IMG/VR virus record: IMGVR_UViG_3300028844_005393
Location: 1 to 64,000 of that record
Strand: one strand, 5' to 3'
Origin: a virus
Length of the DNA: 64,000 bases
Shown here piece by piece: positions 17,345 to 56,800 of this stretch. Each line of letters opens with the position of its first letter. Within the stretch, counting starts at the first letter, position 1. Both the position numbers and the translations under genes were made by a program. The notes under the pieces were generated by a model, which was not told the DNA's origin, did not search any database, and saw nothing but the letters and a program-made list of their open reading frames with translations.

Positions 17345-19579
17345 ATGTCAAACTCAGCATTCAATATGTCAAAGTGTGGTTCAAGTGGAGGACGAGGTGG
17401 TGCTTGTAATCCAAGTGGTTGGGCCAAAATACAAGACAAAGGTGGAAACGATTTAACAATCGTATCAGATGATAAATTACGATCAGCACTTAGAGAAATC
17501 CACACCGAATATTATGGAGATAATAAAGAAGTAGGCGGTTTGAGTGCGGTTAAAGATCACGTTGACCTTGTGTACGATTGCCCCAAAGTAGGTGATGCGA
17601 TCTTTTACAATCCTGATAAAAAGGGGTGGGACTTGGCATCGGCAGAACTAGATAACTCAAACTACTTTGACACAGAAAGATTAATTGAATCACTTGCAGT
17701 TGTAGAGAAAGTGTTAGTTGAATGTAAGCAAGGGGACACAAGTTCCACAAACCAAAGACATCCAGCACGCGTTGTGTTTTTTGGAAAAATAACATTTTCA
17801 AGCGAAACCACCAAACTACAACCTGGGATCGTATATTACCTGGCAGATACAATTGCTTTATTAAACGAAGCACAAGAAACAAGCAAACAATCCGCAACGG
17901 GTGGTTTAGTTGACACAGGAACCTGGAAACGAGTTGGGTCAAACGTAGTACATTCTAATTATGAACCAACTATAAGTAAACCTGTTTTCGTTGCAACAGG
18001 TGAGCACACCGCAATTGTAACAAATTACAGACCCCTAACAGGATCACCAACGGGAGGTCGTGAACTTTCCGAAGAATATAAAATCAAAGTTGACCCACAT
18101 CTATATACAGAATCGGGTACCGGTAAGATATTGTACACAGGATGGAAAATCAAGGTGGAAAACACAGGTACCGTTACAAGTAGAAATAATCTTGTTGTGG
18201 AAATTGCATACAATAAACTTGAAGGTACTCAAGAAAGAAGAGAGTATTCTGATAAAAATGTTCAACTTCCAACACTCATGGGTTCTGAAATTTATGTTTA
18301 TCATGTGGATATTGGTGTATTGCACAATGAAGCAGAAGCAAATGTAAAAGATGATGATACAATTGTCTCTCACAAAACCGTTGATTTCATTCCAAATCAA
18401 TTTCTCGAAAACACGGGTATCGGTGAAGTTACTGTAAAACTGAAAGTGATGACACAATCAACTGCAAATATTGACTTCAACGATAGATACAATTCACCCG
18501 AAGTTCTGCTTGCTAATCAAGATGAAATGAAAAAGAGTAGAATTGTACCAACCCTTTCGTGGACAGGTAGTTGTGCTGACAATCTTCAAAACGAAAACGA
18601 CATATACGTAAAAGGAAGTACTGTCCTTCCTGCTAACAATGTTAAATACGAAGAAGGTTCTGTATTTGAAATTAAATTGGCAGACTCCCAAATACCGGGA
18701 GTTGGAACAGATAATGTATATAAATTTAAAGTACCAATGCCATATAACATTGGATTTAAAATTGACGCACTCGTTGAAAGTAATGATGGTCAATACACAA
18801 ATGATAGTGAATGGTCACCTGTAACTGGAACATTTAAACTCTCACTTCCAAGCAAGGAAATGATAGAAATAATTCCAGTTACATCGGGTGGACAAACCGT
18901 AGTGGAGAAAACACTAAGAATTTCAGCTGTAACCCTAGACGGAAAATCACTACCATCTACACACTGGGCAAATGAATACTCGGTTGAACTTTTAAAGAAC
19001 AACAGAGTTGCTTGTCTGTCTAATTCATGTTGTATAGATGAATATGAACAATTTATACCAGAAAATTCTGCAAGTATATCAAAGAACATCACCCCAATTC
19101 TTACAAACGGTGACTCAGCACTTATTAACAATAAGAACGGAGCAAGATTTTATAGTAAATCGGTTAATGCTCAGTCATGGCAAGGTTCAAAATCAAGACT
19201 TGCTATATCGTGGAAGAACTTCAGAGAAAACACTGTATTCTGTTACCCACCAGTTGACACCGGAGATGAGGCTGCGTTTATGACAATATATGCTGACGAG
19301 GCACGTGTAATTGAGTCTATTGAGAATCACGAGAAGACAGACAACGAGTCGGCATTCTACGACCCAAGATACACACTCATGGAAATTGGTGCACAAAATA
19401 CATTAAATGGACAACTTGTAAGAGTTACTGTAAATTCCGGATCGAAAGTAGCAAACGCACCTGAAACTTGTTATGTATTCAAGTTCAAAGGTAGTTTACT
19501 TGGTACACACTTTACAATCAAGGAACTTAAACACCTTGACACATCCTTTTCGGGACGAACAATAGTTAAAAAGTCGTAA
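17345..19579 (+). CDS. Virion protein with a decoration-like N-domain and one C-terminal copy of the SWKNFRE domain
   Basis: LQPGIVYYL..TISKPVFVAT..NYRPL is paralogous to 15040; AISWKNFRENTVFCYP...EIGA..LNG..GTHFTIKEL. Confidence 0.65.
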   Translation: MSNSAFNMSKCGSSGGRGGACNPSGWAKIQDKGGNDLTIVSDDKLRSALREIHTEYYGDNKEVGGLSAVKDHVDLVYDCPKVGDAIFYNPDKKGWDLASAELDNSNYFDTERLIESLAVVEKVLVECKQGDTSSTNQRHPARVVFFGKITFSSETTKLQPGIVYYLADTIALLNEAQETSKQSATGGLVDTGTWKRVGSNVVHSNYEPTISKPVFVATGEHTAIVTNYRPLTGSPTGGRELSEEYKIKVDPHLYTESGTGKILYTGWKIKVENTGTVTSRNNLVVEIAYNKLEGTQERREYSDKNVQLPTLMGSEIYVYHVDIGVLHNEAEANVKDDDTIVSHKTVDFIPNQFLENTGIGEVTVKLKVMTQSTANIDFNDRYNSPEVLLANQDEMKKSRIVPTLSWTGSCADNLQNENDIYVKGSTVLPANNVKYEEGSVFEIKLADSQIPGVGTDNVYKFKVPMPYNIGFKIDALVESNDGQYTNDSEWSPVTGTFKLSLPSKEMIEIIPVTSGGQTVVEKTLRISAVTLDGKSLPSTHWANEYSVELLKNNRVACLSNSCCIDEYEQFIPENSASISKNITPILTNGDSALINNKNGARFYSKSVNAQSWQGSKSRLAISWKNFRENTVFCYPPVDTGDEAAFMTIYADEARVIESIENHEKTDNESAFYDPRYTLMEIGAQNTLNGQLVRVTVNSGSKVANAPETCYVFKFKGSLLGTHFTIKELKHLDTSFSGRTIVKKS

Positions 19580-20305
19580 ATGGATATAGGGATTATAATT
19601 CCCATATATAACTTATGCGAATACAGACAACGAAGTCTCGCATTCAATTTACACCATTTGTCTAATTCTAAATTATACAGAAATGTAGTTATAGTTGAAC
19701 AACACAGTCCATCAACCAATTCCTACGACATAATCCAAAGATTTCCAGGTATAGAACACAAGATTTTTCATATAGAATCTGATGTATTTAATAAGTCTGT
19801 ATTATTAAATCGTTATATAAACGATTGTACCTTTTCATATATATGGATGTTAGATGTAGATGTTTATTTAGATGTAGATTATGTAACATCTCAAGTACCA
19901 AGTAATTCACATTTGATTAGACCTTATGAATTTATTCAAAATTTAAATGAAAAAGAATCCGATCATTTGCTAAAAACAACATACATAAAATTTGATGAAG
20001 TCCGAAGGGAAGTAAACAATGCGTTTGGTAAATATAGTTTCATAATCAACACAGATTTAATTAAAAGTATAGGTGGGTATGATGAAGCATACGAAGGGTG
20101 GGGATTTCAAGACCTAGACTTAATGAGCAGATTGCCCAAAGACATAGTGCACGGATACACTAAAAATATTGCATTTCATTTATACCACCCAACTGCTTCA
20201 AGAAAAAAATATAATAAAAACAAAGAATTATTTAACAAAAAAGGAAACTTTAAAAAACTTGTCCCTAGAAAAAAGAAAATACTTGATAAAAATAAAAATA
20301 TATAA
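19580..20305 (+). CDS. GT2/GT7-like (galactosyltransferase C-terminal domain) glycosyltransferase
   Basis: IIIPI, VEQ, FNKSVLLN, LDVD, GGYDEAYEGWGFQD, FHLYH. Confidence 0.85.
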   Translation: MDIGIIIPIYNLCEYRQRSLAFNLHHLSNSKLYRNVVIVEQHSPSTNSYDIIQRFPGIEHKIFHIESDVFNKSVLLNRYINDCTFSYIWMLDVDVYLDVDYVTSQVPSNSHLIRPYEFIQNLNEKESDHLLKTTYIKFDEVRREVNNAFGKYSFIINTDLIKSIGGYDEAYEGWGFQDLDLMSRLPKDIVHGYTKNIAFHLYHPTASRKKYNKNKELFNKKGNFKKLVPRKKKILDKNKNI

Positions 20306-20311: not shown

Positions 20312-20319
20312 TTTATATT

Positions 20320-20991
20320 ATGAAAAAATATACCGAATCACAACTAGAAGACAACTACAAGCAATACTTAAAATTTATAGACGACACCTTTACTGGTGAA
20401 CGTAAAGAAAAAATGCTCCATATGTTTGGAACAGATGACGGATGTTTGGGACTACGTGCTTTAATATCTCCTGCGAGTAGCATTGATCGTTTTCACAATG
20501 CTTATGACGGAGGATACATTGACCATGTACTCGGTGTATGTAAAACCGTTCGTGGAGTTAAGGTACTCTTACAAAGCATTGGGGCAAATGTTGATTTTAC
20601 AGATGACGAAATGATGTTCTCTGCGTTTCACCACGATCTAGGAAAACTTGGTTCACTTGACGGAGAACAATATGTTCACAACGAAAGTGAGTGGCATAGA
20701 AAAAATCAAGGAAAACTATACAATATAAACCCAGATATACATTGGATGTCTGTTACGGATAGAAGTGTTTGGTTGCTACAACACTTTGATATTAAAATTA
20801 CCGAGAAAGAATTTTTAGCAATTAAACTTTCAGACGGAATGTACGATGAAGCAAACCCACAATACCTTAAAGCATTTTCAAAGGAGGTTGGACTTAAAAC
20901 AGAATTACCACGAGTGATTCATTGGGCTGACCACATGACCTGCCTTGCAGAAAAATCAAATATGGAAGACATAATGAAGTTTGATCCTTGA
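20320..20991 (+). CDS. HD-domain metal-dependent phosphohydrolase (YhaM-like)
   Basis: PAS...FHNAYDGGYIDHV, HHDLGKLG, IHWAD. Confidence 0.88.
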   Translation: MKKYTESQLEDNYKQYLKFIDDTFTGERKEKMLHMFGTDDGCLGLRALISPASSIDRFHNAYDGGYIDHVLGVCKTVRGVKVLLQSIGANVDFTDDEMMFSAFHHDLGKLGSLDGEQYVHNESEWHRKNQGKLYNINPDIHWMSVTDRSVWLLQHFDIKITEKEFLAIKLSDGMYDEANPQYLKAFSKEVGLKTELPRVIHWADHMTCLAEKSNMEDIMKFDP

Positions 20992-26079: not shown

Positions 26080-26080
26080 G

Positions 26081-29219: not shown

Positions 29220-29605
29220 TGAATAGTGATGTTCCATTGGGTATTAAAATTCCTTATGCAAGAGGTCAACGGGGTTTCTTTGATCAAACTTATTCTGATA
29301 TAGAAAGAGCACACACTAATTTAAAAATGTTGCTAATGACTGCAAAGGGAGAAAGACCAATGATGCCAACATACGGAAGTGATTTAAGAAGTTTGTTGTT
29401 TAATCCTGCGGAAACTGAATATGATGAACTTTTAAAAGAAGCAGTATATGATGCAACCGAAAAGTGGATGCCAGAGGTAGTTATAAGAGATGTAGATGTG
29501 GAACGGGACTTATCCAGTGCACCAAACACCGCAATTCTTAAAATTAAATTTTCAATAAACTCAATACCAGACTCATACGAAATAATGGAACTAGAGGTAG
29601 CATAA
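29219..29605 (+). CDS. Baseplate wedge subunit, gp25/GPW family
   Basis: NLKMLLMTAKGERPMMPTYGSDLRSLLF, KWMPEV. Confidence 0.92.
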   Translation: MNSDVPLGIKIPYARGQRGFFDQTYSDIERAHTNLKMLLMTAKGERPMMPTYGSDLRSLLFNPAETEYDELLKEAVYDATEKWMPEVVIRDVDVERDLSSAPNTAILKIKFSINSIPDSYEIMELEVA

Positions 29606-31575
29606 TGGCAAGTGAACTATACAAATCAGCATCGGCTGGAAAAAAAGATATTAAGTATACAGGAAAGGATTTTAATTCTTTTAGAAAAAACTTAGTTGAA
29701 TATGCAAAATCATACTATTCTTCTAGTTATCGTGATTTTAGTGAAAATTCTACTGGTATGATGTTCATAGAACTTGCTAGTTATGTCGGTGATGTTTTAT
29801 CTTATTATATTGACCATCAATTCAAGGAAGGTTTTTTACAATATGCGTCCGAGAGAAAAAACATTATAAGTTTAGCAAATTATTTAGGATACAAAATAAG
29901 AACATCTGTATCAGCAACAACAGAATTAGAAGTGTTTCAACTCGTTCCTTCTAAAATAGGGTTTAGTGGAAAAATGGAACCTGATTTTAGATATGCTCTA
30001 AATATTCAAGAGGGAATGGAAATTTCCTCAAGTGATGGAACTTCCCCATCATTTAGAACATTAAGTCAAATAAACTTTAACGAAGATAAAAAAGACTCAA
30101 TGCGTGAGGTAAGTGTATATGAACGAGATTCAATTGGCCAACCGACCTTTTATTTATTAAAGAAACGATGCTTGGCAAGTGCTGGAACTCTGATGACAAA
30201 AACAATAAGTGTAGGTGAACCAACTGAGTTTTTTGAAGTATTACTATCCGAAACAAATGTAATAGAAATTCTTTCAGTGGAAGATTCTACCGGAAACAAA
30301 TATTATGAAGTTCCATATTTGGCACAAGATACAATTCCGATAGAAGAATCGAATGATTACAAAAATAACCCTTTGTATGCAAAATATTCCGACTCCATTC
30401 CTTATATCCTCAAATACATAAAAACTTCAAGAAGATTTACAACAATAGTAAATTCTGATAATACAACTACTTTAGAGTTTGGTGCTGGTAGTGATAAATT
30501 TGACGATGAAATTATAATTCCAAATTTAAATAATTTAGGTAAAACTGTGAATTCTGCAAAAAGTTTAGAACGTGGAATTGATCCTAGTAATTTCCTTAAA
30601 TCAAATAGTTATGGAACTGCACCTGCGAATACAAGATTGACTATTAAGTATTACATTGGTGGTGGGGTTTCCTCTAATGTAGGAGCAAATACTCTTAATA
30701 CAATTCAAAGTATAAAGTTTCAAGAAACAACAGAATATTTAGATCTATCTGAACAAGCATCGGTTGACACAATTAAATCAAGTGTACAAGTAAACAACCC
30801 ACTTCCTGCAACCGGAGGAAAGTCGGCCGAGACTGATGAAGAAATACGACAAAATGGTTTAGCATCATTTTCCTCACAGCATCGTGCGGTTACACGAGAT
30901 GATTATGTAATTCGTGCTATGTCCATGCCACCAAAGTTTGGAAGCATCGCAAAAGCATATGTTTCCAAAGACGGAATATTAGATACAAAGAGTCAAACAA
31001 ACATATTCAAGGACGCATTTAATGACGAAGTAAAGGTATCACCCAATGGAATGAACATTGTTTATGGAGAATTAAACAATCCACTTGCAATAAATCTTTA
31101 TGTTTTGTCATATAATAAAAACAATCATCTAATAAGACCCAACGAACTAATTTTAAAAAATTTAAAAACTTATTTAGGTAAATATAGAATATTGACAGAT
31201 GGAATTAATATAACAAATGCGTTTATAATAAATTTCGGAATAAACTTTGAAGTATCTGTTTTTGAGAATTTTAATAAAAAAGAAATTTTAATAAATTGTA
31301 TTAACGAATTATCAGATATGTTTACAACTGACAAAGTTTCAATAATGCAACCAATAGAAATGGGTGAGATAGAACTAAAACTATCTAAAGTGTCTGGAGT
31401 TAGATCGGTACTAGATGTACAAGTAAAAAACCTTACAACAGAAGATGGAGATTACTCCGAAAATGAATATGATATAGAAGCAGCCACCGTTGGTAAAACC
31501 ATATATCCATCAATGGACCCTTCTATATTTGAATTAAAATTTCCAGAAAAGGATATAGTTGGAAGGATAATGTAA
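29605..31575 (+). CDS. Baseplate wedge subunit, T4 gp6-like
   Basis: KDFNSFRKNL, DFSENSTGMMFIELASYVGDVLSYY, LEFGAG, GG..AET.EEIR, RAVTRDDY. Confidence 0.92.
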   Translation: MASELYKSASAGKKDIKYTGKDFNSFRKNLVEYAKSYYSSSYRDFSENSTGMMFIELASYVGDVLSYYIDHQFKEGFLQYASERKNIISLANYLGYKIRTSVSATTELEVFQLVPSKIGFSGKMEPDFRYALNIQEGMEISSSDGTSPSFRTLSQINFNEDKKDSMREVSVYERDSIGQPTFYLLKKRCLASAGTLMTKTISVGEPTEFFEVLLSETNVIEILSVEDSTGNKYYEVPYLAQDTIPIEESNDYKNNPLYAKYSDSIPYILKYIKTSRRFTTIVNSDNTTTLEFGAGSDKFDDEIIIPNLNNLGKTVNSAKSLERGIDPSNFLKSNSYGTAPANTRLTIKYYIGGGVSSNVGANTLNTIQSIKFQETTEYLDLSEQASVDTIKSSVQVNNPLPATGGKSAETDEEIRQNGLASFSSQHRAVTRDDYVIRAMSMPPKFGSIAKAYVSKDGILDTKSQTNIFKDAFNDEVKVSPNGMNIVYGELNNPLAINLYVLSYNKNNHLIRPNELILKNLKTYLGKYRILTDGINITNAFIINFGINFEVSVFENFNKKEILINCINELSDMFTTDKVSIMQPIEMGEIELKLSKVSGVRSVLDVQVKNLTTEDGDYSENEYDIEAATVGKTIYPSMDPSIFELKFPEKDIVGRIM

Positions 31576-39400: not shown

Positions 39401-42400
39401 AGATTACACAATAGAAACAACTGATATTTTTTATTCACCTTCATTATACAAGATTTCCACAAAATATAATTTAAATCTGAGAACAAATTCTATATTAGAT
39501 GTAAAATTTATAGCAAAGAAAATAAGTTATAGAATCAAAAACTCTGATGTTATTTTAAAGTTAAAAAATTCTACCTTAAAATTTAATTTTACAAATAATG
39601 AATTTAACGGAAATGAAATAATAAGTCGTGGAGAAGACTTTCAAGTAGGATCAATCTACAACCAAGCAGGAGAAAAACTTAGAGGAAATGCAAAAGAACT
39701 TATTGCAGATGTAAAGAAAAGCATCAATTACAAAGTGCACACAGAAACCGCAACTCAGGCAGATAAAGTAATTGAAAATGAAAACGATTTTTGCTTGGTA
39801 GTTGCAGGTGATTCTCTTGACAATTTTAATTTCATATTCATGGTTGTGCTTGGAAAGAAAGTAGAATTCCAAACAAGCATGGATAATCAAAACTTTTTTA
39901 ATAACACTTATATCAAAAAAGTTGAAAAGCAAACGTCACATGAACCAACTCCAATGCACATAAATAAAATACCGCAGTTCGTTAGAAAAATAGAATTCAT
40001 AGAAAGTGGGTTGGGTTATATAGGTGATGAAATTGTAGAAGTATATGGTAAACGACCATTGAATTGGAAATCTTCATGGCCACAAAAGTTAAAAGCAGAT
40101 AGTTTATTTAATATAGACAGAGATACGGGAGAAATTAAAGGAGTTAAATTTGATAACTTCTTAATATCTGGACTTAACTGGATTACAGATGAAACTATAT
40201 CATATATTGATACACCTTTAATTAAAATAGAAAAACCAATTAAATCAGAACGTTTTACGAAAAGAGAACCTGCTGAACTTAGAATTGTGACAGGCGAACC
40301 AACACCACAAGTTTCTGCAAAAGTAACATTACAAAATTTTGTTAATTTAGAACTTGGTGATACAATAGGTAAGTCATTAAGATCAGCAAATATGTTCTTT
40401 GAAGGAAGTGAATTGATAAGATACGACACAGGACTAATTCATACTAAGAAAACAAACATCCAAACATCGGAGAAACGTTCTAGTAGAAGATTGAATTCCA
40501 CAGAAGTTATTGTATTTTCAAACGAATCAATTTTGAATTTTGAAATGTATTTAGATAGCAAGATACGAGATATTATGCGGATGGATATATGTGGAAATGA
40601 AACACCAATTACATCCGACACATATGATATTCAAATTAACAACTATATAAATGAAGATGATGACGAAGTAGATTATGATATTTCATATGTAAAAAATCGT
40701 GAGGTAGTAAATAATTTCTTTGTTATATTAAATGAGCTGGAAGCAAAAGACCACGAGAAACAAATTGATGATGAACAATATATCAACAAAATATCTAAAA
40801 TAAATGAAAATAGATTTTCAAGTGGCTACATAAGAATAAATGGTTTTAATACAAACCAATCAACTGCAAACGGAATTTATAGATTTAGAAATGATATATC
40901 GTATTGCGATAAGTTTGGTAGTAATAATGTACCAATTCCAACTTACACAAACGAAAATAAAGAGTGGATTATTACTTATGATGAAGATATTAAAAAGTGG
41001 AAATTAAGAAACATAAAAACATTTGACTTTATTGTATCTAAAACAAAATTTATTGAAGACGGATTTCTTGCAAGTGAAAGTAACAACCAAGGTTTTTATA
41101 CAGGTCGGGAAGTTATATTAAAACCAGAGTTTAAAGTTGATCGCAATGGAATAGTTTTTGATGAAGATGAAAATATCATTGGAAACACATTCCAAGAAGC
41201 AAATGTAAATGTAAGCAATAGGTTCAAGATAGTTCCAAACAAATTATTATTTAAACTCAATAAAGAAAACTTTAATAATTTTTTAATGTGGAAAGTTCAA
41301 ATTACATCCAAGACAAATAAAAAATTTGTGTTTGAGATGCCAATTGTGTACATAAACTCAGATTCAAACGATGAGTTATTTTTAACAAAGTATAATAATT
41401 TAGAGGATAAATTAAAACAACTCAGTGTTACACAATTTCAAGAAACGAGTGAGTGTAGTTTAAATTTTCAAAATGCTATATCATGGAAAATAAAGTTATA
41501 TAATGAAAATAAAGGTGAGTTCTCTGCTACAAAGAAAATAAAAACACAAGGAGTCACTTATTTAAACTCAACTTGCTTTTCAAAGATAATAGATACTGAT
41601 GCGGAAGGAAGGTATTCGTATGTTGCTGATAAAATTATTAATGACAAAAGTACATTACTGGAATATTCAGAGTATCACAAACAATGGAAACTAAAAACCA
41701 TAGACAGAAGTGTTACGTTGTCTATGAATAAAAAATACCCAAAATGTGGTGTTTACAAAACAACTACCAAAAACATATACGGAATTTGTGAATACGAAAA
41801 AGCAGATGATTCAGGAAACCTAGCAATAAGATTTAGAAACTTTGATGAAGAATATGAAAACGCAAATGGTTTATATTTTTCATATGGTTATCTTGAGACT
41901 GGTGAACATTTATTTAGAAATGAAAACTCAAATTGGTTATTTTATACAACAGATGGTGGAAATACTTGGGATGTTAGGGATGATAGAAACTATCCATCAT
42001 TTAAGATTGAAATGTATAGTGAAATTGAACAAGTGGGTGTGTACACAGATAGTACAGAAAATATTAAAGTATTTCTTAACTTTGAAGTTGATTTTGAGTT
42101 TGAAAATAAAAGAGATTTTCTAGATGTAGACAAAGATACATTGGCACTAAAAAGTAATTTAAATAAAATATTAGTGTACAATAAAACAGGATATGAAAAA
42201 GATGTTTCTAATGACATGAACCTTGATGTAAGAATTGATATAGTTAATGCAAAAAAGAAATCAGAATATTGGTCATCAATTCCGTGTAAAAATCAAAAAA
42301 ACATAAATGATCTTTATATGCACAATAATCTGTTTCTAAAAACTACAAATGAAATTTTTGTTGATGAAGATGGAAACGATAACTTCCAAATAGAATTAAA

Positions 42401-44768
42401 TGTAAATAAGACCAAGAATGTGTTAGATGAATATAAACATTTTAAAACTAATTTATCAAACATAGAAGAAACAAAAACAATAGATGTGGGTGAACTTTAT
42501 TCAAATAAATTCAGTACATCCATAAAATACAAAGTTGGTGATATAGTATTTTTAAATGAAATGATGTGGGAATGTAAAAAAGATATTCCTGAAAACAGAA
42601 GTGTAATTCCTGGAATAGATTTTGATACGGGTAATCATTGGAAAATTATTAGTAAAAATTTCACAGAGTTACACATCACCACTGAAATCCAAATAGAAAA
42701 GAAAAAGTATCGTGATATAACTAAAATTAACAACCATGATTTTCATTATACAAAAGAATTTGTTAAATTATTTAAATCAAAAAATCAGTTGGAAAGTGGT
42801 ATAGATGAAGATTTTGAATCAAGTATATTTAAAAGATACAAAACTGATAAGAAGTATATGCCTTTTGATTTGGGCAATATAGGAAAGCACAAAGATATAA
42901 TACCTCATGGTAGGGTAAAAACACACACATACAATACCTATACAAGAAATATGGGTGTGTCTGATAACACAACCGATACAACAATTGATAAAAGTGGATA
43001 TTTGTGTGGAAAACCAACTATTGTAAGAACATACAAAAAGAACGAAGATAGGAAAGAGGAATATAGAAAAGATTCTTTTTGGTTTAACCAAGACAAAAAA
43101 CACACACGAACAAGTGAACCTCAAAACTTGTACGAAAAACCAGAACAAGAACCAATTATTTCTTTTAGATTTGAGAAGTTTGATGTACTGAAAAATATAT
43201 CACTTGTGGTAAGTGGGTTTACAACCGACCAAACCAAAGATTCAAATGGAAAATACGAGCAAATAAATAGTTCGTACAATGATACAAATGTATATAAAAA
43301 CGATAAAGGATACATCATATACAAAACAAATCAATGTTGGATTTTGATAAAATCAAATAAACCAATGGAACTTTCTGAACTTATAGATTCAAATTCAGAT
43401 TACACTACAAGTGAATCAAAGAAAATAGACGGTGAGTTGAATGGAAATTTTGGAAGTAGTGCAAATTTCACAAATCAGGTTGGGTTTGTAGAAATCTTAA
43501 CGGATGAAATAATAGAAAAAACCCCAACTCCAACACCGGAAGTAACACCCACCCCAACTCAAACTCCGACTCCGAGTTTATTGGATGATGAATCACCCGA
43601 TGATCCAATTGCAAAGACAACACCTACACCCACACAAACAACCACACCTACACAAACTCCAAAAGAAAAAACACCGACACCTGTGAGTAAAGAAGAAGAA
43701 AAATTATTTTTATATGAATTTAATGACCTTGCAATAACTTCAAAAAAATATGATTTATCCAAAAATCCAGAAGAAGTGGAAAAAGAAATAAAAGAAGATT
43801 TAGATAATAACAAAATAATTGTATCTGGTATAATGACAGTTGAAGAACTGTCGGAACGGGAAAGTGTTCTTACAAAAATACCAACTTCAATAGAAAACTT
43901 TGGGGTAACGGTTGCGAGTTATTCAAAAATGATAGATAATGACTTAATAACAACAGATAATGTTACAAAGTATGGTTGGACATCAACTGGTACGGTTTTA
44001 AAAGGAAAATTTAGATCATTTTATGTTTCAAGGAATAAAGCAGGAAGAACCCATAAATACGATAATCAAAATATATTTGCAGAATATGGTTATTATATAA
44101 AAAGTTGGTTTGGCCCACGCCCTGTTGTGGTAAAGTTGTTAAACCAAACAGCCGCAGTAACTGACCTAGAAGCAACAAGTGGGTTATCTGAAGGTGTTAA
44201 GCTAACATGGAAACCATCCTATAATGCCGTATACATTAGAATAGAATATAAAAATAAAAGTTCAAGTGAATGGAAAGTGTTAGAGGATAAAATTTCTCAA
44301 ATCAGAGCAACGGGTGGATACGTTGACTCAGATATAAACTTAGATGAAGAACGAACATATCGTGTAATTTCCGTGGGGTTGTCCGGTAAAGAGACTATAT
44401 CAGAAGAAGTTACTGGTTGGAAATTGGGAATACCAGCTTCTCCTGAATACGTAAATGCTTCTTATGATAAATTCGCAGATAAAATTGAATTATCATGGGA
44501 TGCGTCTGGATTAAACTCTCAGTTTAATAAGACAGATAATTATACAATTTTAAGATCAGAAACAAATGAATTTGAAGACTTCTCTACATATCAAGTTATA
44601 GCAACAGAGGTAACCAACTCAAATTATGTAGATGTTTTTAGTTTTACACCAAATAAAATCTTTTGGTATGTAGTTGTAGCAAACAACGAAAAAACAAAAA
44701 TGATGACGTCAGAAGAATACAATAAAAAGAAGAACTGGTCAAAGTCAGCTGCCGGAAAAACAAAATAA
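33411..44768 (+). CDS. Giant (3785 aa) baseplate wedge/adhesin protein, gp7-like core with many inserted domains
   Basis: WRRILNNLPYILKTTGT..IRALF..YG wedge motif; LamG-like FRGTLDKLRIY; one SWKNFRE domain; NGxY modules; CBM5/12-like motif; PT linker; two FN3-like domains at the C-terminus. Confidence 0.7.
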   Translation: MTKILQHTFASSADNENNILRHISLSSDDFNKIKESESSGELFGVNSKDVIEFSAFTQSNELVGWKTIEQAPSYSTKNITHLNTSGELENKTISYLQSLYPKTKNGEVIISPKHELGLLGIEQGEYKIRISYKNDIVGSFDNPYKFEIKEISSSRTEIKAVAQSFKNSVNPNQVSLNFEYSNFINRRIVVAHILEKTKDLLLTKSFKDELETKEFSAKTSDYELYIEKTKKAFSLSELEILTELDSIYTNLKDTYTNFLYGSYNEVFTEGRFYTEFVNLVDYTLSTFSRFVQEDNKDIRLFYKFMLLQMYDESVITNVYKKRFDTYLNNGMNFGNGLYIPFLRYTSYTDDSLAENSNDVLLIKLLTPLEDNIEEGVNFYISQTPYSDDIIKSLVLRTIAEKSSNTFKLRGPNISTKLTSNSTKKYSLSDEEKTESLGRDETSAENFFKTTNTEIENLNIDYSDFKNFVKYSSARSRLDNFILKLTNISKLKFKINETIRNINKLDRDVAEGLVGANEAERSKEVLKNEDIKKYNESIIEIFKSFTPYDKFLYFDDNEAAWPRETSFQISGFVGKNNYLIKSANGFYKLHASRKYDIDKVFINEDNHSWQIRWDAIVSKWRLFNEDSDDYIYSNNSNLNSGFTASETNQSGFDSESSLFKLGTLEDDYTQGKAVFPPELIPTTVIDFQKTEGYNWYQIKAKEADLYDRYNDDSLRNSIPEFLVRTNENDEFTLFLDMIGEQFDILSVYAENMREVSYARNSLNKGIPNQLVWFVMNSFGVRLSGRTTDDSTIGKQFEENRDIVWRRILNNLPYILKTTGTENSIRALFRCYGIPDHLFKIREYGGINYNTDTEDSDANFKISTFDYSLQVDEPDQYLHIPIDLGETNTNSCAFEMKLTTHAEFFEQIQDTETFDELNSGTLPANTGTSVSISNLINSEDDYIINSTSPTFYSKHKDEVSFVPEKWKHTKSTMAISWKNFREGVSFSYPQVTAGKEASFVTIYSDSAKKIRKNKDGKDEYYYDPLYTLAEIGAHDTLNGEIVRLSFGLSHQSVIDDSQSDKFRNDLHSVDFRYEGSVEGEHYTISELRTRRFSKNNGFYPIIQSDRSWDFGIYKNENFRDNYGKFYINFYNTDGVILCPEKNSNPIYFDKDIEYDILINCRTSNIETDSKISIHVKRVYDSEEIFTTEIDILVSEFTSLRVFKTKNLYFGNYESVNKFRGTLDKLRIYSDEVSERRFLSHINNNQGYDLDDYLKLENSLHVKVNFDHPYSLVNDTKHTTFKSALIGSGVDKTGKGEYSGQIDSEGLRDYTEGSRVIITFEKDNKEEAIETVINSNTGVLRFNLQKDYNIELINKPSIRLSSTTNSIKNYALADNAQDITAYNFNKTEYPYNFVGKNRTEISNLPSMGAKSFNNNKIRIETQTKVSQLSPIARATKKSKDRHPVDSNNLGVYFSPTDIVNQEIIRFFGQINMGDFIGDPQETYSHYYKKFEGLRRVFFKHGFGKLDIQNYFNLIKSYIDPSLFENLEKIVPARANLISGLLVEPSLLERNKIIPPRIQSGTWIDLEENDVSDKKKIQEILNIDFKIGNGRNNISTFGNERLYIKNKNTDYKLTHESKIKVFDNESDSTYNYNYSGSLIGEDIKDYTRDLFTINGLTEYKGKLCRVEELNEEKEIGIQYSGKLVNYDIFLNDGIQLMGLKFGLESANGVYEFIFKGNSGLPVFANQNRKWWVFYSSHKNRWILASDNTVDGGKYLALNRNKKFENYTWLGGNRIIDSNTNSPEWFSTGFNNSIESDNLPNEKADYFGRVNFVSKYNRFIDCDAYLQGWVNAELYGIYDGELIERVFVDSNTFENIKKPKQEYIFSGEKKYVYFNGNFRGKLQNGWVGSKQIQQENSNKIIRIIGFFDGKNHDSCEKPYYTSGEINSLVSFDNRDKLVFDYRNFDSNNVRYTKKNFKNFNLVKVPNKINFDNKFDFKFVSDFNIKNQGISDLVDLASGELNKDYTIETTDIFYSPSLYKISTKYNLNLRTNSILDVKFIAKKISYRIKNSDVILKLKNSTLKFNFTNNEFNGNEIISRGEDFQVGSIYNQAGEKLRGNAKELIADVKKSINYKVHTETATQADKVIENENDFCLVVAGDSLDNFNFIFMVVLGKKVEFQTSMDNQNFFNNTYIKKVEKQTSHEPTPMHINKIPQFVRKIEFIESGLGYIGDEIVEVYGKRPLNWKSSWPQKLKADSLFNIDRDTGEIKGVKFDNFLISGLNWITDETISYIDTPLIKIEKPIKSERFTKREPAELRIVTGEPTPQVSAKVTLQNFVNLELGDTIGKSLRSANMFFEGSELIRYDTGLIHTKKTNIQTSEKRSSRRLNSTEVIVFSNESILNFEMYLDSKIRDIMRMDICGNETPITSDTYDIQINNYINEDDDEVDYDISYVKNREVVNNFFVILNELEAKDHEKQIDDEQYINKISKINENRFSSGYIRINGFNTNQSTANGIYRFRNDISYCDKFGSNNVPIPTYTNENKEWIITYDEDIKKWKLRNIKTFDFIVSKTKFIEDGFLASESNNQGFYTGREVILKPEFKVDRNGIVFDEDENIIGNTFQEANVNVSNRFKIVPNKLLFKLNKENFNNFLMWKVQITSKTNKKFVFEMPIVYINSDSNDELFLTKYNNLEDKLKQLSVTQFQETSECSLNFQNAISWKIKLYNENKGEFSATKKIKTQGVTYLNSTCFSKIIDTDAEGRYSYVADKIINDKSTLLEYSEYHKQWKLKTIDRSVTLSMNKKYPKCGVYKTTTKNIYGICEYEKADDSGNLAIRFRNFDEEYENANGLYFSYGYLETGEHLFRNENSNWLFYTTDGGNTWDVRDDRNYPSFKIEMYSEIEQVGVYTDSTENIKVFLNFEVDFEFENKRDFLDVDKDTLALKSNLNKILVYNKTGYEKDVSNDMNLDVRIDIVNAKKKSEYWSSIPCKNQKNINDLYMHNNLFLKTTNEIFVDEDGNDNFQIELNVNKTKNVLDEYKHFKTNLSNIEETKTIDVGELYSNKFSTSIKYKVGDIVFLNEMMWECKKDIPENRSVIPGIDFDTGNHWKIISKNFTELHITTEIQIEKKKYRDITKINNHDFHYTKEFVKLFKSKNQLESGIDEDFESSIFKRYKTDKKYMPFDLGNIGKHKDIIPHGRVKTHTYNTYTRNMGVSDNTTDTTIDKSGYLCGKPTIVRTYKKNEDRKEEYRKDSFWFNQDKKHTRTSEPQNLYEKPEQEPIISFRFEKFDVLKNISLVVSGFTTDQTKDSNGKYEQINSSYNDTNVYKNDKGYIIYKTNQCWILIKSNKPMELSELIDSNSDYTTSESKKIDGELNGNFGSSANFTNQVGFVEILTDEIIEKTPTPTPEVTPTPTQTPTPSLLDDESPDDPIAKTTPTPTQTTTPTQTPKEKTPTPVSKEEEKLFLYEFNDLAITSKKYDLSKNPEEVEKEIKEDLDNNKIIVSGIMTVEELSERESVLTKIPTSIENFGVTVASYSKMIDNDLITTDNVTKYGWTSTGTVLKGKFRSFYVSRNKAGRTHKYDNQNIFAEYGYYIKSWFGPRPVVVKLLNQTAAVTDLEATSGLSEGVKLTWKPSYNAVYIRIEYKNKSSSEWKVLEDKISQIRATGGYVDSDINLDEERTYRVISVGLSGKETISEEVTGWKLGIPASPEYVNASYDKFADKIELSWDASGLNSQFNKTDNYTILRSETNEFEDFSTYQVIATEVTNSNYVDVFSFTPNKIFWYVVVANNEKTKMMTSEEYNKKKNWSKSAAGKTK

Positions 44769-47832: not shown

Positions 47833-50800
47833 GTGATAAAAGTATTGAAATTATCAAATAAGTCGGTCACACGATTTAGCACAAATAAAAAATGGAATTA
47901 TAGTACACTTGATTCGGGAAGTAATATAATACTAGAACAGGGTGATAATGTTCCTTTATTCTCTTCGTCTGTAAATAAATTATCAACCGAACAAAATTCT
48001 TCTGAATTTCAATTAAACATGAGATTTGGAAAAAAGATTTCTGGTACATTTTTTAGCAAAAATAGTAAACACTTTGATGAAACCAAAGAACCATTAAATT
48101 ACGATGGCTCTTATCAAAGAGTTGTGTTTAATAGTATAAAGCATTTATTTTACAACGATTATGGTACCGTGGGTGGTAATGATGAATTAAACAGTTTTTA
48201 CAAAAACCCATTAAATTTATTTGGAAGTGAAACTGGAATTTACTCATCATCAAGTTTTAACTCCAAAACACTTGAAGAAGACCCACGAAGTGAAAGAAGA
48301 GTTTTAAAAGACGAAGTAACTGTCCTTGAAGTACCGTCTAATGTATTTGGTGAAAAAATAAAACCAGGTACATTAAAAATAACAGATAATAGTTCGGATT
48401 ATGATTCTATTGAAATTGTTGACGATGGAAACACTAACTTAATAATAGGTAGTGGTAACTTTAATAATGTAAATGAAATGAACTTGAATAATAATTTATT
48501 TAGTTCAATTTCAGAAACATCATCTTCGGATAACAAGATAAATATAGATTATACAGATTTAAGTTATGGATATACAATAGATACTCATGGAGATTTTTTA
48601 TTATCAGGAGCACCTATTTTATCAGACTCGGTTTCTGAAAATCAATCTGGTCGTGCGTGTTTACACAAATATAATCCAAAAACTAAAAAGCACGAAATAA
48701 TCAAAAACTTTTATTGTCCATTTACACAAAATGGAATTGCACACGAAAATAGAAATGATAATTGTGAATTCATCTTAACTGAACTCGGTGGTATTGTATC
48801 AAGTGAAGATTTTTTGGTAAATGACGACTTCGGAAAATCGGTTTCAATTAATGATACCATATGTGCGATTGGTTCTCCTGGTTCTCATATAAACGGAAGA
48901 CATACTGAGCAAGCAACGGGTCATATTTTTGTTTATCACAAAGATAAGGGTGGTAAAGAAAATTGGGGAATTGTAAATGTATTTGAGGGTACACCCAATT
49001 CTGAATTTGGTCATTCGGTATCAATAAACGAAGAGTTTATAGCAGTTGGTTCTCCAAACTTTGAAGATGGAATTGGTTGTGTTTACTTGTTCAAGAAAAC
49101 AAAACGAACAAAAGAACATCCTTGGATAAAAACATCATCTGTATATGATTCGTATAAGTGGAACGATCTACTGGAAAAGTATGAAGGAATTCCTAAACAG
49201 GATGATACAAAATACAAAGAGTATATTAAAATACGAGATAGTATTGTATCTCGCAGAATAGAAAAAATCAGAACAGAACTTAAAAAAATAAAAGAATCAG
49301 GGGTCATTTCCGAACTCGAATATTTAGATAGACTACCAACCAAGGATGATTTTAGTGAGATTTTTCCATTTGAGTATTTATACACAACATCAAACGAATG
49401 TAATGATTCCGACACTCCTTGGTTTAAAGAAAAAATCTGGAATAAAAATACTCATCCTGCAACAAGATGTAATTCTAAAAATTCTGACAAACATTTTAAT
49501 AAATCAATGTGGCCTGGATACATGACCGATGAAAAAACTGATTTGTACATCCCCAACCCAGAACATGAACAAAACAAGGATAACAAATGGGCATATAGAT
49601 GGAAACTGCAAAATGTAGAGGGTGGTTCTGAGTCTATACATTTGTTCGGAGAGGATATAGAGTGTGAGTTAGATATATTTACTACATTTGAAGACTCAAC
49701 TCTGGGGTCGTTCGGAGACTCAAAACTACCATTAGTAGAATACTCAGAATCTCCAAAATATGCAATTGGTGATGTAACATTTGATTTAGTTGGAGTAATA
49801 AAATCTCCTGATAAAGAAATCAGAAGATTTGGTGAAAAGGTAGTTTTAAATAAAAATAAATTATACATTTCATCTCATTCCACAACTAACCCAAAATGCT
49901 TTATGTTTCAAAAAACAACAAATGAGTTTGGTTGTGAAGTGTGGAACTTAAAAAATACAATTTCAGAAACTCAGTTATTGGGTCACGCTTCAAACTCTAA
50001 AATTGACGATTCATTGAATTATGCTCAAATCAATCATTATGATTCTTTTTTTGAAATTGAAATATGCCCAAAACACGACAACTACGATAAGTGGATATAT
50101 AGTTTTGATAAACCAATATTAAATTCAGAAAAGGTTGTAGTAAGTGGAACTCGGATTGATAAGTGTGATTCAAAATGCATAGACACGGGATCATATAATT
50201 ATTATTCAAGATTTAGGCATATAGGATTAAAAGAAGCAGGACACCTAAAACACAATTATGGAGAATCCACAGAAGTGATTTCAGGAGAAACTGGTAAGTT
50301 CTATAAACGTCCGAGTAATTATGATCCATATACACAACCATTGTTAATGTCCCAAAACGAAACAATGGAGTTATCCTGGAAACGTTTTCGTGAAAATGTT
50401 TCATTTGCTTATACAAATGTTCCACCTGGGAAGCATAAGTCAAAAATGACAATATACTCAAATAAAGCAAAATTAAAAGATGGAACTTATGATGAAAAAG
50501 AAACACTTGCTGAAATTGAAGCAAATGAAACATTAAATAATAAAAAAGTTAGATTGATTTTAAATAGTGGGTTGGGAGAGTCTGAATACTTTTACGAGTT
50601 TTTATTTCGTGGATCGCTAGACGGAACACATTATACACTAAATGAACTTGTAGATAAAATTGATTATGCGTGTACACTACCACCCAACATTGGTTCGTTT
50701 GTAGATATAAGTGACAAATTAGATGATACTTTACATAATCATGGAAATTGTAAATTTTTCTCAAAAGAAAAATCAGCAAGTTCGTATATTGAACCTTGGA

Positions 50801-53800
50801 GTGCAGACGATACAATTGCTATTTCATGGAAGAACTTTCGTGAGAATGTATCTTTTTCATATCCAGCAGTAAAAAGTGGAAGTCAACCATCGTTTATGAC
50901 AATTTATGCAAACGAAGCAAAACTAAAAGATGGAACATATGATCCAATTCACACACTTGCTGAAATTGGAGCACACGAAACATTAAATGGAGAAATTGTG
51001 CGTTTGACATTTAATAGTGGTTTTGTGAACGGAGATGAATATTATTATGAATTTCTATATTGTGGGTCAATAGAAGGAACTCATTTTACATTAAACGAAT
51101 TAAAACAATCATTAGATTACGAATGTACATTGCCACCAAATCAAGGTGAGTCTATATCAATCGCAGAAGAACACTTTGACGATCCTTTAAAAAATAAGCA
51201 ATATGCAAGATTCTTTTCTAAAGGATTGGATTCATTGTCATATGTAGAGCCGTGGAGTGCAGATGATACAATTGCATTGTCATGGAAAAATGTTCGTGAG
51301 AATGTATCTTTTTCATATCCAGCAGTTAAAAGTGGAAAGCAACCATCATTTATGACGATTTATGCTAACGAGGCAAAACAAGACGATGGAACATACAACC
51401 CACTTTATACAATTGCCGAGATAGGAGCACATGAAACTTTAAATGGTAAAAAAGTAAGACTCACATTTAATACCGGATTTGCGGGTGGAGACGAATACTA
51501 TTACGAATTTATATATCGTGGGTCAATAGAAGGAACACATTTTACACTAAATGAACTTAGAACTAAATTAGATGACGGTTATGCAGAAACGCAGATAAAC
51601 TCGGGTGATATTCGTTATATCAAAAATTATGATAAGTTAAATATCCACAAACGTTGTAGGTTACCAAAGTTTTATACCAAGTTTGAAAGTCAATTATCAT
51701 ATGTTGAACCTTATTCAAGTGATGATCACATAGCAATATCTTGGAAAAACTTCCGTGAAAATATTTCATTTTCATATCCAAACATAAAGACCGGTTCTGA
51801 ACCAAGTTTCATGACGATTTATTCTAACGAAGCAAAACAAGTTGACGGAACATACGATCCGATTTACACTCTTGCAGAGATTGGTGCAGATAACGCATTG
51901 AATGGTCAAAACGTAAAATTATATATAAATGCCGATAATTGTGAACATGATAACACATATTATTATGAATTTATTTATAATGGTTCGGTAAATGGAACTC
52001 ACTATACACTAAACGAATTAAAACCAAAATTTGATTATGAGTGCAATTTTCCACCAAATTTAGGAAAGTCAGTTGAATTAAAAACACTGGATGGTAGATT
52101 TAAGGAAAACAACGGTGCTAGGTTTTTTAGTAAATCCGAAGATTCGTTGTCATTTCTAGGCACACACTCCACCGAAGATACAATGGGTTTATCTTGGAAG
52201 AATTTCCGAGAGAATGTATCTTTTTCTTACCCAAGAGTAAAACAGGGAACTAAACCTTCGTTTATGGCAATTTATTCCAACGATGCAAAGAGGTCAGACG
52301 GAACATACGACCCAATGTATATGTTAGCAGAAATTGGTGCACATGAAACCCTTAACAATAAAATGGTTAGATTAACACTAAATAGTGGGTTTGTAAATGG
52401 AGACGAGCACTACTATGAATTTCTATATCGTGGGTCAGTACAAGGAACTCACTTTACTTTAAATGAACTAAAAACATCACACGAATATGATTGTACACTT
52501 CCACCAAACCAAGGTGGGTATGTGTCAATCTCAGATAAAAACTTCAAAGACGCACTTAACAATAAATCTAGGGCAAAATTCTACTCAAAGAGTGAAGATG
52601 GATTATCATATGTTGAACCTTGGAGTGATGATAAAACAATTGCAATATCTTGGAAGAACTTTCGTGAGAATGTATCTTTTTCATATCCAGCAGTTAAAAG
52701 TGGAAGTCAACCATCGTTTATGACAATTTATTCAAACGAAGCAAAGAGTGTAGATGGAACATATGACCCAATCCATACACTTGCTGAGATTGGAGCACAT
52801 GATACTTTAAATGGCAAGAAAGTAAGACTCACATTCAACACAGGATTTGTTGGTGGGTCCGAGTATTATTATGAATTTATATATACAGGCAGTGTACACG
52901 GAACTCACTATACATTAAATGAACTAAAAGAATCTTTTGATTACGAATGCACACTACCACCTAATATGGGAAAGTATGTATCTTTGTCAAAAATAGAATT
53001 TGATGATTATTTAGATAATAACGACAAAGCAAAGTTTTATACAAAGAGTGTTGAACAATCCGCATACATACAGAACCCAACATCTAAAGATGAAATTGCT
53101 ATTAGTTGGAAAAATTTCAGAGAAAATGTTTCTTTTTCATATCCTAACGTAAAATCTGGAAACGAACCAAGTTTTATGTCAATTTATTCAAATGACGCAA
53201 AGGATAAAAAGGGAAGATATGATCCCATCAAAGCACTTGCGGAGATAGGTGCAGATGTGGGTTTAAATGGCAAAATAGTTAGATTAACATTTAATACAGG
53301 TTCAACTAATGATGACGAGTTTTATTATGAATTTAAATATGACGGATCGTTGACTGGTAAAAATTATACATTAAATGAATTAGCTGAAAACGATTTACTA
53401 CATAAAGTTGAGTCTGGAAATCACATACAAAGAAAAAACAATTCTGTAATTGAATTTAAGGTGTCGGAAAAAATACATAGAATAAAAGTTGAGAAGGTAC
53501 AAAAAGAAAAATCAAATAAAATAACTACAACAAAAAATAAAAAGTTAAATACAATTAAGTCGTTTGGTTTGTTAGAAAAAAACAAGGGAAAATTAGAAGT
53601 AATTGATATTAAATTACGAGATGATATATTACAGTCATCCGAATCATTAAACTTTTATAGTCGTGATGATGATGATGAATTATATACAGAGAATACCAAA
53701 TTAAAAAACGAAGTTCAAATTGATTGGAGGAATTTTAGAGACGGTGTTAGTTTTTATTATCCTATTGTTTTAAAAGAAGATAACAATACACCTGTAAAAA

Positions 53801-56800
53801 TGACAATTTATAGTGACCACGAGAATGTAGATGGGTATGATAAACATAGAAAACTTGCAGAGATTATTACAAATTCTGGATTAAACGGTGAGGTTGTTCG
53901 TCTTAGTTTAGAACCAAAGGAGACGAATTCTATATTCTATGAGTTTATGTTCGATGGTCAACCCGAAGAAGGTTCGCATTATACATTAGCAGAATTAAGT
54001 ACAAAAATACCAAATAATCGTTTATTCAAAAGTAATGATACAACACCAACGACAGAGGGTGGGACTATAAAAAATCAAGCAAGAGAAAGCTTTATTCCAC
54101 CGATTGTATACTCAAGTGACTTAGAAAGTTGTAAGGTAAAACTTGATAAAAGTAAAATTACAAGTGGACGACATAATTTATATATTTTATTGGTTGATTC
54201 TAAATTAAAACCACTTGGAGAAGAAACGAAAATAGAAATGTACAACAATCCAAGTTTTTACAATTTAGAAGATAGAAGAAATTTGGTAAAAAAATCATAC
54301 GGTTACTCTGATAATATAAAATCTGAGTTTGGACGGGGTATTGATGCTTCCGACAAATATGTGGTAATAGGAAATCCTTCGGATAGAGTATATTACCTAA
54401 ATTCAACAAAGTCATGTGTTGCTGGAAGTGCTTTTGTATATAGAGTAAATGATGATGATTTGAATTTCATTGAAAAGATATATGGTGAAGATGACTACGA
54501 AAACAATTTTAGTTCTGGATTTGGAAATGATGTTTCTATTTTAGGAAGTAACTTTTTAGTGGGAAGTTATTCACATGAAATATCAGATATGACTCTTACG
54601 GAAACTAATTCTGCAAAACGACTAGATATTGAAGACTTAGAGTTTGGTGTATCCAAGTTTACAGATGAAGTATATACTACAACCGATGCACTTATTACCG
54701 ACTATGAAGTGGATTTAAGCAGTGAGTTTGGTGACGCATTAATAAAAGTAAAACTGGATGGTTTAAATATAGACAAATCATTAATTTCAGAGTCCACATT
54801 AAGAGCAAATTTTATAGATACAGGAAACGAGACGATTCGTATTACACAGGTAGAAGGAGAAAGTACAGAGTCAATAAACGGAACATATCGTTTAGTTAAA
54901 TCTCCTATACAAATAAAATCTGGATGTGAAATTGATTTTAATGAAAATTATCGTGTTTACATTAACAAAAACAATTGGTCAATATTTTTTGACAAACTAA
55001 GAGGTGCGTGGATTCTCACCGATACTCCAAATGTCTCTGTTGAATATGAAATTCCAAGTGAATGGACCGATGTATTAAAACACTTTGAAAGAATAAACTT
55101 ACTAGATAAGTTTAATATATTGACAGAAGAAATGATAAATACTGCATTAAGTTTATATAATATAATAGATGAAGATATAACAACAACTTGGAGATCACGA
55201 AAGCAAAAACAAATTCCAAAAAATAACATAAGATACGCAGATTTATTTAGAGAGTTGGAATCTGTAACTAAACTAAAATTAAATCCTACTATAATTGAAA
55301 GATTATTTTATTTGTATAGTTCTAATTCACGAAAAAAAATTGATATATCTATTTTAAACAGATGGAAAAACTCAAACCAAAATATAGGGGTTCTTCCTTT
55401 TATATATGAACTAGATTCTGTCAATCCTATATCTCTTAATTTTGATTTATTGATAAAGACACTTGAGGTATATAATTTAAAAGATTATGAAATCGCAAAA
55501 ACATGGTCAGTTAAATTGGGATATGAATATTTGCTCGGTGACTTGATAGATGATATTCGTCCTAAATACCATGATAATTTATCATTATACAACCTAAGAC
55601 TTATTAGCAAAATTGCATTTGATTTTATTAATGACCGAAACTATTCTGATTCTGATATTAGTAAAAATTATTTTAGAAATTTAGTAAAACAAGACATTGC
55701 AATATATCTTGATAAATGGAAATCCCAGGTGGAAAACGGATTTTTATTAAGTGATGCGTTTAAGGATATAAATGAAAATATAAATATAAACTTTTCAATA
55801 TCAGACGAAGCATCAGAAGATGACCTACCAACAAAATTTAGCTATGGGGTTGGTACATTAAGCAATATGGAAATAAAAGTATTTTCAAATAACGACACAT
55901 CTGGTAACAATTCATCACTTACATGGGGAGTTTATCGTGATGCCACAAAGATAGTTGGTAATCAAATATATTTTTATGTAAATTTACTACCAGATACACA
56001 GTTAGATGACACCGTTGTGTTCGTTTACAACTCTGTAAAATCAGCAATAAATGGATATACCTATTATTACTCAATTGAGAATGAAACTGGTAAGTGTAAG
56101 CAAATGAAGAGAATGAAAACAAATAAAAAGAAATACTCTTGCAAAAAGCAATATGGATTTGCAGTAAGTTTGAGTAACAATTTTATATGTGTGGGTTCTC
56201 CTGTTCTTGGTAATTTTAATATAGACGAACTAATTACATTCGGAGGAAGTTCGGTAGTATCATTCGGAACATCCGAGAAAATGTACATTGAGTATAATGC
56301 AATACATCCCTCTTATATAAATGAACTTGGTAAAAATATTGTAGGAACAATTATAACATACGATCACTCTGCGATAAAAGATAACAAAAAACATTATATA
56401 GGAAATGTATTTTACAAAAATGGTGTCATTACACTTACAGACAGAGCAGGATATTTTACAAATGTATTAAGCAACAGTGGAGTTTCTGGATTTGAATTAG
56501 AATTTAAATCAATGCACACTTTATATGAAAATGAAATTTTATGCAAAATTGAACCACATGAATTTAATTTTAGTACCAACCCAACCGCAGTCGTAGCTGG
56601 TGGAATCAACTATGATATAAACAACGATGGAAGATTTGATATAATAGATGCTTCCTACATTTACAAATATATAATGGGAGAAATTGGTCCAATTGAAAAA
56701 TCCGATGAAGAAATAATAGAAGAACACAACGCAATTAAATTAGGTTCTAATGATAATTGGCCAAAACAAGATTTATTAATGACCGAGTCAGAAGATGCTT

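Follow-up and report, generated by a model that had tools for sequence, protein, structure and literature searches.

A protein unit of approximately 150 amino acids (aa), present in ten copies on three proteins of an uncultured virus, is judged from its sequence to be a new family that occurs within a single clade of uncultured marine myoviruses and nowhere else. The DNA under study, referred to as the window, comprises 64,000 nucleotides and is the first 64 kb of the 80,180-bp IMG/VR record IMGVR_UViG_3300028844_005393, for which CheckV indicated a completeness of 41%. Eight copies of the unit form an array in a 3147-aa protein, one is located inside a 3785-aa protein, and one is found at the C terminus of a 744-aa protein (Table 1).

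Sequence and predicted structure of the unit

Ten candidate units were cut out and aligned to build a hidden Markov model (HMM), and all six stop-to-stop frames of the window were scanned with this model with filters switched off. This yielded exactly 10 significant matches with E values between approximately 1e-54 and approximately 1e-75, followed by a next best match with an E value of 0.04, and a search of the whole record again returned 10 copies. The scan bore out a preliminary description of the same DNA, which had reported a domain of about 150 aa in ten copies on three proteins, and the coordinates agreed within a few codons. All eight copies described there as a tandem series in the 3147-aa protein are present, but a Lys-rich spacer of approximately 46 aa sets copy 8 apart from copy 7.

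The length of the unit varied between 141 and 174 aa and was typically about 151 aa, with both solo copies being longer (172 to 174 aa) due to internal insertions. Pairwise identities over the 10 copies were 27 to 75%. Array copies 2 to 7 were 48 to 75% identical to each other, and array copies 1 and 8 plus both solo copies reached 27 to 51% identity to the remaining ones. Twenty alignment columns were invariant in all 10 copies, including a W-K-N-x-R-E/S-F-x-Y-P core. When 71 copies from this and related phages were considered, 28 positions were conserved to at least 90%, among them N9, G11, W57-K58-N59, R61-E62, S65-F66, Y68-P69, E102, N110, and E147. The charged or polar residues K58, N59, R61, E62, E102, N110, and E147 reached this level although some paralogues were less than 40% identical overall. 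Tandem Repeats Finder did not detect the array as a DNA tandem repeat because the copies are too diverged at the DNA level; the array should therefore be old, and a recent amplification was rejected.

The unit had been called unrecognised in the preliminary description, and the alignment of the ten copies and the HMM-based searches of family and protein databases agreed with this assessment, since no known family was matched. There was no Pfam-A family for five units at E values up to 1, and when all 43 members of an alignment designated A2 were used at E values up to 10, no family occurred in more than three members (best E value, 0.0024). The Pfam models for fn3, BACON, BACON_2, Big_x, and Ig did not match the unit. 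Matches in PHROGs v4 were isolated and at noise level (best E value, 0.038), as was the best one in NCBIfam (20), which concerned a single member (E value, 0.009). A profile search of all PDB sequences gave a best E value of 0.04, a tblastn search of 50,697 phage records was negative, and the ESM Atlas had no usable match. Likewise, a pattern-seeded scan of one genome per species from 185,579 prokaryote species did not find the unit.

Only 63 matches to the unit were obtained when 1.84 billion representative proteins were searched with a HMMER profile. Eighteen of these, ranging from the closest to the most distant, were compared with the three window proteins, and 17 were relatives or fragments of one of these, with alignments that reached past the unit; in P0058, a 345-aa piece, the similarity was confined to the unit. 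Distant relatives were also found, namely the 744-like proteins P0072 and P0074 at 26 to 32% identity and the 3785-like protein P0050 at 32 to 41%. A scan of viral contigs seeded with P0074 gave no match. Two leads to known repeat proteins, both from the search of the 1.84 billion proteins, were rejected. One was an FN3-repeat protein in which one 30-aa motif match of less than 10 bits had been summed over 11 repeats, and the other was a BACON_2-repeat protein (E value, 4e-6) with short matches of less than 10 bits each, summed over six stretches. Such artefactual matches are sums of repeated 30- to 60-aa matches in highly repetitive proteins.

Array copy 6 was modeled with AlphaFold2 using alignment A2 with its 43 sequences. 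The model had a mean predicted local distance difference test (pLDDT) value of 93.5 and a predicted template modeling (pTM) score of 0.87 and contained ten short strands plus a short C-terminal helix. A second, independent model of aa 850 to 1275 of the 3785-aa protein showed the same strand order in the nested copy (residues approximately 66 to 238 of the model), plus a copy-specific hairpin. The unit is thus predicted to be an autonomously folding, mostly beta-stranded domain of approximately 150 aa, in agreement with its earlier characterization as beta-rich. Structural neighbors did not appear in Foldseek searches: among 350,542 PDB chains, the best E value was 0.048 with a TM score of 0.16, and the highest TM score among the matches listed was 0.23; in BFVD, the best E value was 0.068 with TM scores of at most 0.24. 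The top rows for the unit model were Ig-like folds, yet these were weak matches with E values of 0.05 or worse, probabilities of at most 0.21, and TM scores of at most 0.24. VIA-align of the model against the top 1000 chains gave no match either. The lack of structural neighbors fits a new fold without proving one, and an absent match does not prove that the fold differs from the sandwiches of the immunoglobulin (Ig)-like, FN3, or BACON type.

Table 1. Features of the window that carry or surround the repeated unit, and open reading frames (ORFs) compared with them
Feature	Position	Strand	Evidence or remark
744-aa protein	17345..19579	+	ORF; 21 relatives of 709-814 aa, none with a name
Solo copy at C terminus of 744-aa protein, 172 aa	19022..19537	+	HMM E 1e-54 (window), 5.9e-56 (whole record)
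3785-aa giant protein, 3' of gp6-like wedge gene	33411..44768	+	ORF; tblastn/BLASTP blocks shared with distant orthologues
Predicted ConA/LamG-like jelly-roll domain, split by nested copy	35958..37235	+	
Solo copy nested in 3785-aa protein, 174 aa, two internal insertions	36153..36674	+	HMM E 7.8e-57
3147-aa giant protein with 8-copy array	47833..57276	+	ORF, GTG start; Pfam FG-GAP_2 48.6 bits, Dockerin_1 31.4 bits
FG-GAP repeats upstream of array, aa 201-466	48433..49230	+	Pfam FG-GAP_2 E 8.6e-12, 45.5 bits (cut-off 23), 2 stretches
Array copy 1, diverged	50200..50658 (HMM match 50236-50658)	+	HMM E 3.8e-56 (window), 3.3e-58 (whole record)
Array copy 2	50662..51111	+	HMM E 3e-74 (window), 2.5e-76 (whole record)
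Array copy 3	51115..51567	+	HMM E 6.7e-74
Array copy 4	51571..52029	+	HMM E 4e-67
Array copy 5	52027..52479	+	HMM E 1.5e-69
Array copy 6, the modeled unit	52483..52935	+	HMM E 1.2e-75
Array copy 7	52939..53391	+	HMM E 2.4e-70
Lys-rich spacer between copies 7 and 8	53392..53529	+	Translation; no HMM match
Array copy 8, most diverged	53530..54006	+	HMM E 1.3e-53
Weak FG-GAP-like repeats downstream of array	54007..54732	+	FG-GAP_2 E 2e-4, 21.9 bits (below cut-off 23); motif matches at aa 2166 and 2230
Two calcium loops of dockerin-like type, D-x-N-x-D-G (aa 2928, 3024), in C-terminal region	56533..57273	+	Pfam Dockerin_1 E 4.6e-09, 36.8 bits (cut-off 22.9), 2 stretches
Small-module copies, 3785-aa protein	35154-35273, 38514-38627, 40866-41006, 41862-41975		
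Small-module copy, 3147-aa protein	54874-55017		
gp6-like baseplate wedge gene	29605..31575	+	PHROG 219, 10646, and 6, "baseplate wedge subunit," E 8.6e-18 to 2e-15; marks tail module
Glycosyltransferase	7847-10096	-	
PhoH-like	14222-14977	+	
GT2-type glycosyltransferase	19580-20305	+	Pfam Glyco_tranf_2_2, Glyco_transf_7C, Glycos_transf_2
HD-phosphohydrolase-like	20320-20991	+	
Hsp20-like	21093-21587	+	
Distant orthologue ORFs (immuto, Mel-JY01, LR756508)	L038:23279-27076, L039:11338-15348, L040:14536-18747		Compared with window 33411-44768

Placement of the unit in its proteins and their relatives

A scan of IMG/VR for the unit identified 29 loci on approximately 20 contigs, and every full-length relative had the same three placements in the same gene order. 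One 67-kb contig contained all three proteins, spaced by 17 and 15 kb as in the window, and the gp6-like proteins of the unit-bearing contigs were 72 to 97% identical to that of the window. Relatives of about 3700 aa carried one copy at aa 906 to 1099, and those of about 745 aa carried one C-terminal copy. Even the more distant relatives at the protein level (26 to 41% identity) possessed the unit at the same positions. The orthologues of the 3147-aa protein in related contigs spanned 2576 to 3280 aa. Those of about 3150 aa had eight copies starting near aa 820, and two variants had six copies in 2576 aa (L017, IMGVR_UViG_3300017743_000097) or five copies in 2627 aa (L018, IMGVR_UViG_3300048504_000538). 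Both short arrays kept the first, fourth, and last copy types, with inner copies being lost.

In a maximum-likelihood tree of the 71 copies, those from array positions 1, 4, 7, and 8, the 3785-type copies, and the 744-type copies each formed one clade across phages; copies from array positions 2, 3, 5, and 6 were mixed by lineage. Since the copies group by position and the relatives share the same placements, all three placements, and the array in its outline, predate the clade. The spread of the unit is thus ancient, with placements fixed before the divergence of all sampled relatives, and duplication, loss, or conversion continues only inside the array, among the inner copies. The preliminary description had interpreted the unit as a portable cassette distributed by shuffling within the genome. 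This stands insofar as the unit was once added, because distant orthologues do not have it; current mobility, however, disagrees with the identical positions in all relatives within the clade and with the grouping of copies by position instead of by genome.

The addition of the unit can be followed in the 3785-aa protein. Its gene comes after that for the gp6-like wedge protein and two small genes, an order also found in Flavobacterium phage immuto and Microcystis phage Mel-JY01, and the product is an expanded orthologue of proteins of immuto (1265 aa), Mel-JY01 (1336 to 1337 aa), and the uncultured phage LR756508 (1404 aa). The first 1550 aa have blocks in common with the protein of immuto (446-562/275-378, 694-864/398-600, and 1412-1548/600-742, with the window protein given first) and with that of Mel-JY01 (694-844/416-591, 1205-1267/778-843, and 1401-1549/891-1038). 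Two blocks that abut at residue 600 of the immuto protein are approximately 550 aa apart in the 3785-aa protein, and the nested unit, aa 915 to 1088, lies within this extra stretch. When the baseplate regions of immuto, Mel-JY01, and LR756508 were scanned with the HMM without filters, no trace of the unit appeared (best E value, approximately 1). The orthologues of these three distant phages hence lack the insert, which means that the unit was added at some point. In total, approximately 2400 aa were added to the 3785-aa protein in the clade, including a Pro/Thr-rich linker near aa 3370 to 3420.

In the model of aa 850 to 1275, the strands before the unit (residues 7 to 49) and after it (residues 247 to 377) jointly build a ConA/LamG-type jelly roll. 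This two-sheet structure was superposable on folds of the LamG, pentraxin, or carbohydrate-binding module (CBM) 40 kind, with 160 to 180 residues aligned in each case across the model range 1 to 395, and Foldseek matched it to the PilC lectin module and laminin LG4-5 with E values of 7e-5 to 1e-3, and also to legume lectins. On the sequence level, Pfam Laminin_G did not match the 3785-aa protein. Because strands on both sides of the unit make one jelly roll, the unit is predicted to be a domain within a domain. An attempt to locate the insert by a gap against Mel-JY01 was abandoned because the global alignment of the LamG-plus-insert region was too weak (z score, approximately 3), so that the insertion is deduced from the BLAST blocks and the fold model.

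The statement of the preliminary description that the unit sits between parts of other folds also agrees with the 3147-aa protein, which has FG-GAP repeats before the array and, weakly, after it. Four candidate FG-GAP blades were recognized by motif before the array and three after it, making one propeller interrupted by the array a possible arrangement. Linkers between the array units are very short. The two dockerin-like loops (D-I-N-x-D-G) in the C-terminal region are approximately 96 aa apart; the calcium loops of canonical type I dockerins are spaced far closer. A tblastn search with the N-terminal part of the 3147-aa protein did not find relatives among the 50,697 deposited phage records.

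Both giant proteins also share a second, smaller module of approximately 40 to 48 aa (x-N-G-x-Y ... N/D-x-x-W-x-hydrophobic ... W-x-L). The 3785-aa protein has four copies of it, and probably a weaker fifth one near aa 3290, and the 3147-aa protein has one. The third unit-bearing protein has an N-terminal region of 555 aa that showed no match in Pfam, PHROGs, or the PDB. With this part, tblastn against the 50,697 phage records gave no match, and the ESM Atlas contained only sub-threshold viral hypothetical proteins (score, 0.77).

Source phage and neighboring genes

The window has a G+C content of approximately 30 to 36%, and a PHROGs scan showed that it also encodes an SbcC/gp46-like nuclease subunit. 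As judged by the gp6-like protein, the nearest deposited phages were LR756508 and Mel-JY01 (43% identity each) and immuto (38%). A megablast search with a 14.6-kb query found no relative at the DNA level among the 50,697 phage records, and the protein relatives come from TARA and other marine metagenomes. Taken together, these results indicate that the source is an uncultured marine myovirus distant from every cultured phage. A description of the repeated unit or of the phage clade was not found in literature searches.

The 744-aa gene is flanked by a PhoH gene and an unknown gene on one side and by genes for a GT2 glycosyltransferase, an HD phosphohydrolase, and Hsp20 on the other, a neighborhood that looks auxiliary rather than structural. 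The GT2 gene and the glycosyltransferase gene at 7847-10096 suggest synthesis or modification of a glycan by the phage; besides the GT2 enzyme, glycosyltransferases are encoded on the minus strand within positions 1 to 13175.

Possible function and comparison with known systems

The favored reading, given about an even chance, is that the unit is an accessory adhesion module. It is preferred because the partner folds belong to adhesion or lectin types (FG-GAP, dockerin-like loops, and ConA/LamG), because giant proteins of the tail module present the unit both as a single copy and in an array of variable length, and because a polar/aromatic hairpin is conserved far beyond the needs of the fold. 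The unit would then sit on the surface of tail and baseplate appendages as an accessory module that makes weak, multivalent contacts with a polymer of the host envelope, most likely a glycan. The strictly conserved hairpin W-K-N-x-R-E ... S-F-x-Y-P may provide the contact surface, and the length of the array may set reach and avidity. Such a role would be similar to that proposed for decorations of the Ig-like, BACON, and CBM types in other phages. A more far-reaching version of this reading is tentative: that the fold is unseen in solved structures, arose or was captured in one marine myovirus lineage, and was deployed in three ways, as an array, as a nested insert, and as a C-terminal tip, to serve as a new recognition module for the host surface, probably for a glycan.

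Three points weigh against an adhesive role. The phage is known from metagenomes alone; the conserved polar residues could be structural, in salt bridges or calcium sites, rather than form a binding site; and the 744-aa protein, being encoded among auxiliary genes, may not be a virion component. A location in the virion is presumed for all three unit-bearing proteins and is unsupported for the 744-aa protein.

Alternatively, the unit may be a rigid block without any ligand that only lengthens or stiffens the appendages, with the length of the array setting their geometry. The variation of the copy number between five, six, and eight while the protein is kept, the very short linkers between units, and a unit model that resembled no known binding fold in the fold searches would all agree with a structural spacer. 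Such a spacer leaves unexplained why a single copy is nested in a lectin-like domain and why the 744-aa protein bears another one at its C-terminal tip. Moreover, domains of this kind usually conserve only their core hydrophobic residues, whereas here a polar and charged motif is conserved to at least 90% in 71 copies. A spacer function without ligand is considered unlikely.

It is quite improbable that the unit serves in assembly or docking, allowing the three proteins to bind each other or a common virion partner, with the single copies attaching to the array or to the same baseplate site. This would account for a clade-specific unit that occurs on exactly three proteins, always together and in the same order, one of which has dockerin-like loops, a motif of protein-protein docking elsewhere. 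Positive evidence for self-association is missing, though, and it would be unusual for two partners with one copy each to dock on a platform of eight tandem copies. Solo and array copies are also only 27 to 51% identical and have diverged by position, for which separate constraints are a better fit than one shared partner. Least probable, and indeed very doubtful, is a non-adhesive decoration in which the unit is an acceptor scaffold for the phage's own glycosyltransferases, producing a glycan-coated particle: the GT2 gene begins at the first base past the stop codon of its 744-aa neighbor, more glycosyltransferases are encoded on the minus strand, and S56, S65, and T144 are highly conserved, but adjacency is all that connects these enzymes to the unit, an acceptor motif is not known for them, neither giant gene adjoins glycosyltransferase genes, and the host envelope could just as well be the target of the glycan genes.

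With respect to an accessory adhesion module, the nearest precedent in behavior is the BACON array of crAss-like phages, where tail-associated tandem arrays arose by serial duplication (de Jonge et al. 2019, PMC6949934). Like the unit, BACON is a beta-rich domain of approximately 80 to 150 aa in head-to-tail repeats on a large protein of the tail module, with a copy number that varies between lineages, extra single copies elsewhere, and a proposed function in host or glycan binding (PMC6949934). BACON is widespread in bacteria; in contrast, the unit was found in one phage clade and in none of the scanned prokaryote genomes. It also differs from BACON in having no sequence match to BACON or BACON_2, and in Foldseek its model matched Ig-like folds only weakly.

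Ig-like decorations (I-set, FN3, and Big_2) on phage structural proteins, for example T4 Hoc, were reportedly described by Fraser et al. in 2006 in J Mol Biol. Similar to the unit, these are accessory beta domains, terminal or inserted, on several structural proteins of one phage, and they are thought to bind weakly to cell-surface carbohydrates. The unit is larger, about 150 aa versus 80 to 100 aa, and has no Pfam Ig, FN3, or Big match. A third comparison concerns the "evolved" Dit and Tal proteins of siphophages, such as the Dit of phage J-1 with its CBM2 (PDB 5ly8), in which insertion of a whole domain expanded a conserved baseplate protein compared to its orthologues, as in the 3785-aa protein. 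Unlike the siphophage insertions, the lectin-like fold is here the recipient, with the new domain nested in it, and the phage belongs to the myoviruses and has a gp6-like wedge. The unit is a new domain family, possibly with a new fold, of a familiar kind, namely the accessory repeat modules found on the tail proteins of phages.

Among uncultured marine phages, the giant proteins of tail and baseplate are for the most part uncharted, and in one such protein the unit makes up approximately 1,200 of 3,147 residues. It provides a clean, clade-specific marker and a candidate for a new fold that combines a confident model with no neighbor in the PDB or BFVD and is small enough to be expressed and solved. 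The comparison with distant relatives illustrates domain accretion in a baseplate protein, from approximately 1,300 aa there to approximately 3,800 aa here, including the predicted insertion of a domain within a domain. If its ligand is a host glycan, the unit would offer a way to find the host and to understand adsorption in an abundant group of marine viruses.

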